DNA from: Escherichia coli
GTDB taxonomy: Bacteria > Pseudomonadota > Gammaproteobacteria > Enterobacterales > Enterobacteriaceae
Assembly: GCF_046105845.1 (NCBI RefSeq)
Contig: NZ_CP151004.1
DNA length: 64,000 nucleotides
Reading direction: 5' to 3' (one strand)
In this document: positions 5,825 to 52,060 of the stretch, piece after piece
How the letters are laid out: each line of letters starts with the position of its first letter
Numbering within the stretch: the stretch's first letter is position 1
Program-made: the position numbers and the translations under genes
The notes under the pieces: generated by a model
What the model was told of the DNA's origin: nothing
Databases searched by the model: none
The model's input: the letters and a program-made list of their open reading frames with translations, nothing else

Positions 5825-7027
5825 ATGCAAAGTGTTGATGTAGCCATTGTTGGCGGCGGCATGGTGGGGCTGGCGGTTGCCTGTGGCTTACAGGGGAGCG
5901 GCTTACGCGTTGCCGTACTGGAGCAGCGCGTACCGGAACCTCTGGCGGCGAATGCACCACCACAACTGCGCGTTTCGGCTATCAATGCCGCCAGCGAAAA
6001 ATTACTCACCCGTCTTGGCGTCTGGCAGGACATTCTCTCTCGTAGGGCCAGCTGTTATCACGGTATGGAAGTGTGGGACAAAGACAGCTTTGGTCACATT
6101 TCGTTTGACGATCAAAGCATGGGCTATAGCCATCTTGGGCATATCGTTGAAAATTCAGTGATTCACTACGCGCTGTGGAACAAAGCGCATCAGTCGTCAG
6201 ATATCACTCTGTTAGCCCCCGCAGAATTACAGCAGGTCGCCTGGGGAGAAAATGAAACCTTCCTGACGCTGAAAGACGGCAGTATGTTAACGGCGCGTCT
6301 GGTGATTGGCGCGGACGGCGCTAATTCCTGGTTGCGCAACAAAGCCGATATTCCGCTGACCTTCTGGGATTATCAGCATCACGCGCTGGTAGCGACCATT
6401 CGCACTGAAGAACCGCATGATGCGGTGGCGCGGCAGGTTTTCCATGGCGAAGGCATTCTGGCCTTTTTACCGCTTAGCGATCCGCATCTTTGCTCGATTG
6501 TCTGGTCACTGTCGCCAGAGGAAGCGCAGCGGATGCAGCAGGCAGGTGAAGACGAATTTAATCGCGCGTTAAATATCGCTTTTGATAATCGCCTGGGCTT
6601 ATGCAAGGTTGAGAGCGAGCGTCAGGTGTTCCCGCTGACGGGGCGTTATGCCCGCCAGTTTGCCGCACACCGTCTGGCGTTGGTGGGCGACGCCGCGCAT
6701 ACTATTCACCCGCTCGCGGGGCAGGGCGTTAATCTCGGCTTTATGGATGCCGCAGAGCTGATTGCCGAACTGAAACGGTTGCATCGTCAGGGTAAAGACA
6801 TCGGGCAGTACATTTACCTGCGTCGCTATGAGCGTAGCCGTAAGCACAGTGCGGCGCTGATGCTGGCTGGTATGCAGGGATTTCGCGATCTGTTTTCCGG
6901 TACCAATCCGGCGAAAAAACTGCTGCGTGATATTGGTCTGAAACTGGCCGACACGCTTCCTGGCGTTAAACCACAACTTATCCGCCAGGCAATGGGATTA
7001 AACGATTTGCCTGAATGGCTGCGTTAA
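5825..7027 (+). CDS. ubiI: 2-octaprenylphenol hydroxylase (FAD monooxygenase)
   Basis: 400-aa ORF MQSVDVAIVGGGMVGLAVACGLQ...; UbiI/VisC, paralogue of UbiH. Confidence 0.92.
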   Translation: MQSVDVAIVGGGMVGLAVACGLQGSGLRVAVLEQRVPEPLAANAPPQLRVSAINAASEKLLTRLGVWQDILSRRASCYHGMEVWDKDSFGHISFDDQSMGYSHLGHIVENSVIHYALWNKAHQSSDITLLAPAELQQVAWGENETFLTLKDGSMLTARLVIGADGANSWLRNKADIPLTFWDYQHHALVATIRTEEPHDAVARQVFHGEGILAFLPLSDPHLCSIVWSLSPEEAQRMQQAGEDEFNRALNIAFDNRLGLCKVESERQVFPLTGRYARQFAAHRLALVGDAAHTIHPLAGQGVNLGFMDAAELIAELKRLHRQGKDIGQYIYLRRYERSRKHSAALMLAGMQGFRDLFSGTNPAKKLLRDIGLKLADTLPGVKPQLIRQAMGLNDLPEWLR

Positions 7028-7070
7028 AAATTTCTCATCTGTTGTTTATTTGATACCCATCACACTTTCA

Positions 7071-7100
7071 TCTCCCGGTTTTTTCGCCGGGAGATTTTCC
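7071..7100 (+). terminator. Rho-independent terminator after ubiI
   Basis: Hairpin tctcccgg ... ccgggaga with flanking T-rich tract about 45 nt after the ubiI stop. Confidence 0.55.
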
Positions 7101-7474
7101 TCATTTGAAATAAACTAATTTCACCTCCGTTTTCGCATTATATTTTCTAATGTCATGATTTTTTGATTTAGTGTTTTTTGACAATTTTTTAGTTCTTAAT
7201 ATTGCATTAATCAAATTAACTTTCTCATCTGTTTATCTTTATATAGAGATTTGTTCATTTTTTGGTTTTTTATTCTGTTGTGATTTTGGCGTTTTTTAAC
7301 CATAAGCTAATGTGATGATCAATTTTACCTTATGGTTAACAGTCTGTTTCGGTGGTAAGTTCAGGCAAAAGAGAACGATTGCGTTGGGGACCGGGAGTGG
7401 CTCCGATGCTGGGTTTCGTGGTGATAATTTCGCCATGGAAAAGTTGTCAGCCCCGCTTATTCAATGAGGACAAG

Positions 7475-8569
7475 ATGGCACAACAGACTCCTTTGTACGA
7501 ACAACATACGCTTTGCGGCGCTCGCATGGTGGATTTCCACGGCTGGATGATGCCGCTGCATTACGGTTCGCAAATCGACGAACATCATGCGGTACGTACC
7601 GATGCCGGAATGTTTGATGTGTCACATATGACCATCGTCGATCTTCGCGGCAGCCGCACTCGGGAGTTTCTGCGTTATCTGCTGGCGAACGATGTGGCGA
7701 AACTCACCAAAAGCGGCAAAGCCCTTTACTCGGGGATGTTGAATGCCTCTGGCGGTGTGATAGATGACCTCATCGTCTACTACTTTACTGAAGATTTCTT
7801 CCGCCTCGTTGTTAACTCCGCCACCCGCGAAAAAGACCTCTCCTGGATTACCCAACACGCTGAACCTTTCGGCATCGAAATTACCGTTCGTGATGACCTT
7901 TCCATGATCGCCGTACAAGGGCCGAATGCGCAGGCAAAAGCTGCCACACTGTTTAATGACGCCCAGCGTCAGGCGGTGGAAGGGATGAAACCGTTCTTTG
8001 GCGTGCAGGCGGGCGATCTGTTTATTGCCACCACTGGTTATACCGGTGAAGCGGGCTATGAAATTGCGCTGCCCAATGAAAAAGCGGCCGATTTCTGGCG
8101 TGCGCTGGTGGAAGCGGGCGTTAAGCCATGCGGCCTGGGCGCGCGTGACACGCTGCGTCTGGAAGCGGGTATGAATCTTTATAGTCAGGAGATGGACGAA
8201 ACCATCTCTCCTTTAGCCGCCAATATGGGCTGGACTATCGCCTGGGAACCGGCAGATCGTGACTTCATCGGTCGTGAAGCCCTGGAAGTGCAGCGTGAGC
8301 ATGGCACAGAAAAACTGGTTGGTCTGGTGATGACCGAAAAAGGCGTGCTGCGTAATGAACTGCCGGTACGTTTTACCGATGCGCAGGGCAACCAGCATGA
8401 AGGCATTATCACCAGCGGGACTTTCTCCCCGACGCTGGGTTACAGCATTGCGCTGGCGCGCGTGCCGGAAGGTATTGGTGAAACAGCGATTGTGCAAATT
8501 CGCAACCGTGAAATGCCGGTTAAAGTGACGAAACCTGTTTTTGTGCGTAACGGTAAAGCCGTCGCGTGA
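7475..8569 (+). CDS. gcvT: Glycine cleavage system T protein (aminomethyltransferase)
   Basis: Internal ATG at 7475 gives [41 protein letters not shown]..., 364 aa; the track ORF at 7352 is 5'-extended. Confidence 0.94.
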
Positions 8570-41967: not shown

Positions 41968-42288
41968 AACCCTCTCCTTAGCTTATACAGATATCATTGA
42001 GTGACCGGTGTTGAGAAATCCGGTGGTTTAGGGGGATAGAGCAACAATCGCACCACTCTTGCCAGGTTTGGCGGGAAATATAAAAAAATGTGAGGCGGCT
42101 CGAAACTTAAGGGCTTTTTGTGAATGAACTCACAGGTGCCAAATGAGAATTAAAATCACTCCTGAAAATTATTATTGCCAGCCCATTTATCACTTTTTCT
42201 CTTTTCTCAAAATCAGTGATTCCTTATCATTATGATAAAGAGTGCCGGAAGGATTAAATATTTGAACGCAATCGTTTAACTACGTTTT

Positions 42289-51585: not shown

Positions 51586-52060
51586 AAAGTCCCGGTAGTG
51601 GAATGACAGGCAAAGAGGTTTATTTCACTGTGACTTGCCAAAGTGATTGGTGTTTTCACAGCTATACCTGGGACTAACAATAAGTGTGCCAGAATTATCC
51701 GCGCGGCTGGAAAAGACTAATTTGACGGATAATGTGTGGGGTTGATCACAAATTGATGCCAGCTTCCGGTTGTTTGTAAAATACGAAAACGTTTGGCTTT
51801 TTTTATCGCGTTATTTATTTGCTGCTAAGTATCAGAAATAAGATAAAGGGACAGGCGATCTCTCTTCAGTTTGATAAACTCACCGCCGTAATTCTCATAT
51901 TGATATAGAAATGTGATATCTCTTCCATAATTTCATTAGAAAGTGATAAAAATCTTATGTTTTTATCAAAGCCAATTTCGCCTGAGTTAATATCATCATG
52001 ATCTATGAACCATCAACGTCTTCAATGATCGACTTTTAAGTAAGTCTGGAAGGTAAAGCT

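Follow-up and report, generated by a model that had tools for sequence, protein, structure and literature searches.

The gcvT gene of Escherichia coli lies behind a long intergenic region, which raises the question of whether so much sequence is a transcribed leader, a region to which regulators bind, a coding region, or DNA of foreign origin. We consider this question for positions 7028-7474 of a 64,000-nucleotide stretch of an E. coli genome (NCBI RefSeq assembly GCF_046105845.1, contig NZ_CP151004.1), which we call the window. With the end of ubiI at 7027 and the ATG of gcvT annotated at 7475, the interval is the entire 447-bp ubiI-gcvT intergenic region. Open reading frames (ORFs) and the RefSeq annotation give the gene order pepP-ubiH-ubiI-gcvTHP on the plus strand, and RefSeq agrees on the ATG at 7475 both for a near-identical strain and for E. 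coli K-12. With a probability of about 0.93, the interval is the already characterized control region of the E. coli gcvTHP operon and holds nothing new for E. coli biology. The evidence for this reading is the identity with K-12, the positions of the regulator motifs, their conservation across genera, and the nearly invariant distances between them.

The interval is identical to K-12 at 422 of 447 positions (94.4%), and 21 of the 25 differences are located in an AT-rich spacer at 7156-7299. The locus and its flanking genes are those of the K-12 gcvTHP control region studied by the Stauffer laboratory, and the GcvA, PurR, CRP and promoter blocks match those of K-12 fully or almost fully. What sets the window apart from K-12 is a minority allele of the spacer, a TTG start codon in the small gene yqfI, and a single-nucleotide polymorphism (SNP) at 7438 that opens a reading frame. 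Of 5426 complete E. coli genomes, 5425 contain a single match to a 701-bp query around the interval. A preliminary description made from the sequence of the window had proposed that this is the gcvT upstream region with control by several regulators, and had suggested comparison with the characterized promoter. That interpretation is supported as correct by the homology to the K-12 region and by the conserved GcvA, PurR and CRP-like blocks, and the observation behind it is real, though loosely worded.

The wording matters for three of its terms. The roughly 450 bp had been called AT-rich, and the interval indeed has a GC content of 0.349, compared with 0.504 for the whole window; no other 200 bp in the 64 kb is as AT-rich as 7137-7336 (GC 0.23). 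However, the AT-rich portion is confined to about 7100-7330 (about 230 bp; GC 0.247), and the final 107 nt or so before gcvT, which are the actual leader, have a GC content of 0.514. The AT-rich part is upstream of the promoter and so cannot properly be called a "leader". The term "noncoding" also fails, because the K-12 gene yqfI (b4754) and its equivalents annotated by the Prokaryotic Genome Annotation Pipeline (PGAP) map to the minus strand within the interval. On the plus strand, T makes up 51% and A 24% of the AT-rich core (7090-7340), where each of the 11 homopolymer runs of at least four nucleotides is a run of T on the gcvT sense strand.

A single scan of a collection of species-representative genomes with a degenerate gcvT start yielded 87 enterobacterial loci. 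The ubiI gene is upstream of gcvT in every locus with enough flanking sequence, and the ubiI-gcvT spacer is 376-609 bp long, mostly 396-455 bp, with a sole exception of 315 bp. In an alignment of 24 genera, conservation falls on the TCACA half of a CRP-like site, a hairpin, 7100-7151 (GcvA sites 3 and 2), 7298-7347 (GcvA site 1 and the -35 element), 7348-7387 (the -10 element and the PurR box), and the Shine-Dalgarno sequence. The CTAAT-bearing blocks at 7098-7155 and 7296-7339 are the best-conserved parts of the intergenic spacer. Unlike the near-fixed distances between these sites (Table 1), the length of the leader varies between genera, from 57 to 114 nt. Two gcvT loci are without the GcvA, PurR and CRP blocks that all the other loci have, namely those of Intestinirhabdus alba (L037; intergenic length 539 bp) and of a genome titled Martelella alba (L077; 315 bp).

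Table 1. Elements of the ubiI-gcvT intergenic region in window coordinates, followed by the distances between conserved elements in the enterobacterial loci
Feature	Positions or distance	Strand	Basis or remark
CRP-like site TTTGAtacccaTCACA	7049-7064	.	15/16 match, one mismatch to TGTGA-N6-TCACA
ubiI terminator-like hairpin ATCTCCCGG-N8-CCGGGAGAT, then UUUUCC	7070-7095	+	Folding, conservation
Predicted GcvA site 3, CTAAT at 7115-7119 within TGAAAT-N6-ATTTCA	7098-7127	.	Conserved block
yqfI, 27 codons, TTG start in the window allele	7101-7184	-	K-12 b4754, PGAP annotation
Predicted GcvA site 2, ATTAT-N5-CTAAT at 7137-7151	7128-7155	.	Conserved block
AT-rich, T-strand-biased spacer	7156-7299	.	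GC 0.21-0.28
Predicted GcvA site 1, palindrome TTAACCATAAGCTAA-N14-TTACCTTATGGTTAA, CTAAT at 7307-7311	7296-7339	.	Overlaps -35 region
Predicted gcvT promoter: weak -35 TGGTTA 7333-7338, 17-bp spacer, extended -10 TGgTAAGTT 7353-7361	7333-7361	+	
Spurious N-terminal extension of gcvT (GTG ORF 7352-8569)	7352-7474	+	41 extra codons
Predicted transcription start, ±2 nt	7369	+	106 nt upstream of ATG
Predicted PurR operator, minus-strand reading ACGCAATCGTTCTCTT	7369-7384	.	14/16, two mismatches to ACGCAAACGTTTTCNT
Leader hairpin 1, 5' arm begins inside PurR operator	7381-7409	+	Minimum-energy fold and RNAalifold consensus
Leader hairpin 2, 11 bp	7414-7440	+	Minimum-energy fold
Shine-Dalgarno GAGGA 7466-7470 and gcvT ATG 7475-7477	7466-7477	+	RefSeq annotation
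TCACA to GcvA site 3	44-45 bp		75/77 loci
GcvA site 3 to site 2	27 bp		79/79 loci
GcvA site 2 to site 1	170-171 bp		78/79 loci
GcvA site 1 to PurR core	73-74 bp		78/79 loci

The GcvA footprints share the sequence CTAAT, the pattern ATTAG-N5-CTAAT is a GcvA motif, and the footprints at gcvTHP cover about 35 and about 57 bp (PMC5002191). Three predicted GcvA sites, with CTAAT beginning at 7115, 7147 and 7307, are found in the window in the expected arrangement of one site of about 36 bp close to the promoter and an upstream pair of about 58 bp. The site 3 block, CTCATTTGAAATAAACTAATTTCAC, is nearly unchanged across the 24 genera, and the site 2 block, TTTTCGCATTA...CTAATG, is conserved as well. 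The dyad of site 2 opens with ATTAG in most other loci, whereas E. coli has ATTAT at this place; a perfect ATTAG-N5-CTAAT dyad is present in 20 of 80 loci. Site 1 is a palindrome whose 15-nt arms are 93% complementary. Its segments CATAAGCTAATGTGATG and CTTATGGTT are invariant across genera, and it has no polymorphic column among nine E. coli alleles. In K-12, the footprint of site 3 was reportedly mapped by Wilson et al. in 1995 to -271 to -242, and the Stauffer laboratory is said to have found site 2 at -241 to -214 and site 1 at -69 to -34. With a start at 7369, we take these footprints to be 7098-7127, 7128-7155 and 7300-7335, respectively, so that site 1 falls exactly on the palindrome.

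The spacer between GcvA sites 2 and 1 has the lowest cross-genus conservation of the interval, and 7160-7290 is essentially unconserved. Ungapped identity to E. coli in the other loci is 31-48%, yet the length is 140-141 bp in 79 of 80 loci. Freedom of sequence combined with a fixed length is the pattern to be expected if the upstream GcvA sites and the promoter are joined in a looped or bent nucleoprotein complex, and it accords with the published role of Lrp as an architectural protein. Its GC content is 0.21-0.27 in Escherichia and 0.29-0.50 in other genera, and thus the extreme AT-richness is specific to Escherichia.

The spacer also varies within E. coli. Polymorphism among the nine alleles affects 37 of 144 spacer columns, without insertions or deletions, compared with 0 of 86 columns over site 1, the promoter and the PurR box. 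Diversity peaks at about 0.11 in the spacer, relative to 0.02-0.04 in the flanking genes; the nine alleles were picked to span the range of identities, which inflates this estimate. The 161-bp core at 7150-7310 diverges by up to 17% from the window allele within E. coli and is exactly 161 bp long among the matches listed. Its identity to the window allele is 80-90% in 3976 genomes, 90-95% in 1220, and at least 95% in 229, and it is 86% in K-12. The window strain therefore belongs to a minority type in its spacer, shared at 95% identity or more by only 229 of 5425 genomes. Lrp acts at gcvTHP as an architectural protein, and Stauffer and Stauffer reportedly located its footprint in 1994 at about -229 to -92, which would presumably be 7140-7277 if the start is at 7369. 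The length-conserved, AT-rich spacer indirectly suggests that Lrp may bind between GcvA sites 2 and 1 in this strain also.

The predicted gcvT promoter combines a weak -35 element with an extended -10 element, and the pattern TGnTAAGTT of the latter is retained in 69 of 80 loci. From this -10 element and the coordinates reported for K-12, we infer a transcription start near 7369; the position was chosen because the K-12 coordinates of the CRP site, GcvA sites 1-3 and the PurR site then all land on conserved blocks. The PurR box is the joint best match in the window, and its core, AACGWTTGCGT, is retained in 82 of 84 testable loci. The Stauffer laboratory is said to have mapped PurR at gcvT to -3 to +17, presumably 7366-7385 with the same start. 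The center of the CRP-like site (7056.5) is at about -313 from this start, and Wonderling and Stauffer reportedly described in 1999 a CRP site of gcvT centered at -313. The TCACA half of the site is unchanged in all 78 loci where it could be located. Repression of gcvTHP by PurR is cited in PMC9501238 and PMC1905917, and the latter also cites the effect of CRP on gcvT.

These elements suggest a mechanism in which a weak, activator-dependent sigma-70 promoter drives gcvT. GcvA would act from the proximal site 1 and from sites 3 and 2, which are about 170 bp further upstream. The spacer, which corresponds to the Lrp region of K-12, would have an architectural role, with a bent or looped complex bringing the upstream GcvA to the promoter. 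With glycine present, GcvA would activate, and in its absence GcvA together with GcvR would repress. Existing work indicates that GcvA together with glycine activates gcvTHP (PMC3879156) and that GcvR has a role in repression of gcv (PMC7382830), and a glycine-inducible promoter has been cloned (PMC7019758). PurR, binding over the start site, may confer repression by purines, and the complex of CRP with cyclic AMP may provide an input from the carbon source. The transcript would begin with a leader of about 106 nt and normal GC content, in which two conserved hairpins are predicted to precede the ribosome-binding site. Protein occupancy, the start site and looping are presumed here from published work on K-12.

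Several observations weigh against this assignment. In 64 kb, neither the lone CRP match (5 found, 2.0 expected) nor the lone PurR match (6 found, 2.8 expected) is significant. Such single matches are weak, and hence we judged them by cross-genus conservation. By this measure the CRP site is itself uneven, because its left half is degenerate beyond Escherichia, Salmonella and Citrobacter; it is well formed (TTTGA) only in these three genera, and in the remaining genera it is weak and overlaps the ubiI stop codon. A scan for the Lrp consensus (YAGHAWATTWTDCTR, at most three mismatches) gives 82 hits, compared with 80.6 expected. Of the motifs that the preliminary description had proposed to scan for, the GcvA (CTAAT) blocks and the CRP-like match are present, as is the PurR match, but Lrp remains at chance level. 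The AA/TT dinucleotides in 7140-7300 have no 10-11-bp phasing; an isolated peak occurs at a period of nine. The consensus scan finds no sigma-70-like site on the plus strand, although the lack of a consensus-grade promoter is as expected where transcription depends on an activator. Finally, the numbering of the GcvA sites derives from the coordinates reported for K-12 and from internal consistency.

The leader of about 106 nt folds into two hairpins (-40.3 kcal/mol over 123 nt, z = -2.2). RNAalifold, applied to a MAFFT alignment of 62 leaders, recovers hairpin 1, and of 83 leaders folded individually, nearly all are predicted to form a hairpin that starts at the PurR box. When the two-hairpin structure is specified on the alignment, 80.8% of cells can pair, versus 33-50% after a shift of the 3' partners by one to three columns. 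The covariation score is 0.338, versus 0.07-0.11 for the shifted versions, and is reached by none of 500 shuffles. Hairpin 1 is paired in 91.5% of cells and has changes on both sides at four pairs. It also has many G.U pairs, which point to an RNA on the sense strand. Hairpin 2 is paired in about 66-74% of cells in the unfitted alignment, also with changes on both sides, and is present in most genera. The two leader SNPs that separate the window from K-12, at 7432 and 7438, both turn U-A pairs of hairpin 2 into U.G. The sequence GAGGA-N4-ATG is invariant in the 62 aligned leaders.

The Enterobacter cloacae group and Lelliottia differ in this respect. Their leaders are about 80 nt long (L005, L013, L024, L026, L045, L052, L055, L059, L060, L065 and L086) and have, in place of hairpin 2, a shorter hairpin, CACCG-N7-CGGUG, followed by the U-run AAUUUUUC. 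This arrangement looks like a weak terminator or attenuator. For the two-hairpin form, it is a tentative and rather unlikely proposal that hairpins 1 and 2 are an undescribed cis-acting RNA element for the stability or translation of gcvT mRNA in the Enterobacteriaceae, a family without the glycine riboswitch. We rejected two other candidates within the leader. A CsrA site at the GGA in the loop of hairpin 1 has its motif in only 50 of 83 leaders, and we found no link to it in the literature. An upstream ORF from the AUG at 7406 in K-12 lacks its start codon in roughly half of the leaders, and the C/U variation there instead fits base pairing.

The hairpins bear on the idea that the whole region of about 450 bp is a transcribed leader with a riboswitch or attenuator. 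A glycine riboswitch lies ahead of gcvT in many other bacteria, and the last 106 nt of the interval do hold two conserved structures. However, a cmscan search of Rfam at E <= 1 over 6800-7700 returns only three unrelated, chance-level hits, with no glycine riboswitch (RF00504) and no family that matches the leader hairpins. Moreover, the promoter elements and the PurR box at 7333-7384 put the AT-rich part upstream of the start, the sequence of the AT-rich spacer is not conserved, and the E. coli leader hairpins are not followed by U-tracts, which together make a riboswitch or attenuator very improbable. A foreign origin of the AT-rich core, as a remnant of a mobile element or an H-NS-silenced island that happens to be upstream of gcvT, would account for its being the lowest-GC segment of the window, for its being far more AT-rich in Escherichia than in other genera, and for its high diversity in E. 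coli. It would not account for a core that has the same place and the same length in nearly all loci of about 25 genera and that is free of insertions and deletions among the E. coli matches listed. Nor does an inverted-repeat scan reveal repeats that bracket the core, finding only short palindromes and the known arms, and we give this explanation almost no credence.

The remaining alternatives hold that parts of the interval are coding, and the stronger of them is that the AT-rich part is mainly yqfI, with the conservation at 7100-7155 reflecting selection on a protein. The gene is annotated in K-12 and by PGAP, which also annotates the identical allele in strain EC931. YqfI has been detected by sequential peptide affinity (SPA) tagging, and the ORF is positive in ribosome profiling (PMC6001520). 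In the window, the predicted product is LSKNTKSKNHDIRKYNAKTEVKLVYFK, which matches K-12 at 24 of 27 residues and departs from it in the start codon (TTG for ATG) and at residues 10 and 11. The frame is kept within E. coli, and a C-terminal IRKYNAK..VKLVYFK is recognizable in several genera. Yet this conserved C-terminal half coincides exactly with GcvA sites 3 and 2, which yqfI overlaps, and amounts to these sites read on the opposite strand. The N-terminal third is highly variable even in E. coli, where residues 9-11 vary freely (NNG, NHD, IRG, IRD, IHN) and the start codon is ATG in K-12, TTG in the window and ATA in strain S87 (L095). In most genera the frame has no ORF or has lost the stop codon; the ORF is absent, shifted or unterminated everywhere except in Escherichia and a few Citrobacter. 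A Lys/Asn-rich composition is, in addition, the default of an A-rich strand. Selection on YqfI is thus an improbable explanation of the conserved block. The idea that gcvT truly starts at GTG 7352 has in its favor an uninterrupted ORF in the window. That ORF exists because an A-to-G change at 7438 relative to K-12 converts the TGA at 7436-7438 to TGG and so removes a stop codon, which closes the frame in K-12 and four other strains (five of nine alleles). The GTG sits inside the -10 region, upstream of the predicted start, and leader lengths differ between genera by non-multiples of three, so the extension is not a coding frame. Given also the invariant GAGGA-N4-ATG and the RefSeq start, this possibility can be practically dismissed, and the preliminary description was right to regard the extension as spurious.

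We regard yqfI as a translated ORF that is probably young or incidental. A candidate weaker still than the proposed leader RNA element is that yqfI is a young ORF born atop GcvA sites 3 and 2 and that gcv control is disturbed when it is transcribed or translated. A second small ORF was also considered, on the plus strand at 7171-7299, with 42 Phe/Leu-rich codons. It has radical substitutions, and an in-frame stop in one of nine E. coli alleles. This ORF most likely arises from the base composition of the T-rich strand.

The terminator-like hairpin is found within the interval, and does not form its boundary, as had been assumed when the region was described as starting after the ubiI terminator. 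Its arms of 9 nt are 100% complementary, with a folding energy of -17.6 kcal/mol (z = -4.7). Of 78 loci, 77 have a GC-rich hairpin in this position, and their stem sequences differ in a manner indicating covariation. The U-tract is short and does not satisfy a rule of at least five T in eight, and a consensus scan for promoters and terminators called no terminator here. We kept the element as terminator-like on the grounds of its folding and conservation.

Elsewhere in the window, a perfect CRP consensus, TGTGAatgaacTCACA, is found at 42119-42134 in the mocA-ygfK intergenic region. Also, at 51735-51798, a PurR-like box with two mismatches, AGCCAAACGTTTTCGT, is 33 bp from a CRP-like site, TGTGGggttgaTCACA. 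This intergenic segment has no annotated feature in RefSeq.

The gcvT region resembles other known systems in part. With the gcvA-gcvB promoters, which belong to those of LysR-type regulators, it shares CTAAT, ATTAG-N5-CTAAT and an activator site by the -35 element (PMC5002191). In contrast to gcvA-gcvB, it has two additional GcvA sites some 170 bp upstream, which would need an architectural spacer, and the regulator gene is not divergently linked, because gcvA is located elsewhere. The glycine riboswitch (RF00504), as in Bacillus, Vibrio and others, also controls gcvT, and glycine is again the signal. At gcvTHP, however, glycine would be sensed by the GcvA and GcvR proteins acting on DNA, and the leader is short, with two simple hairpins. 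The gene yqfI is one of the intergenic small proteins detected by tagging (VanOrsdel et al. 2018), but its ORF differs from that set in that it sits atop two predicted transcription-factor sites and is not conserved at the protein level.

The gcvTHP promoter is a textbook multi-signal promoter that responds to glycine through GcvA and GcvR, to purines through PurR, and to the carbon source through CRP, with Lrp as an architectural protein. During long-term stationary-phase evolution, mutations recur in the gcvT promoter region, and later mutations in the gcvA promoter are contingent on them (bioRxiv 10.1101/2024.03.21.586114). To this picture the spacing constancy, the leader hairpins and the overlap of yqfI with GcvA sites are minor additions of modest value. 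Distances that stay constant to within about 1 bp over about 25 genera speak independently, on evolutionary grounds, for the looped-complex model, and the comparison of alleles and genera points to the allele swaps and spacer insertions that would be informative.

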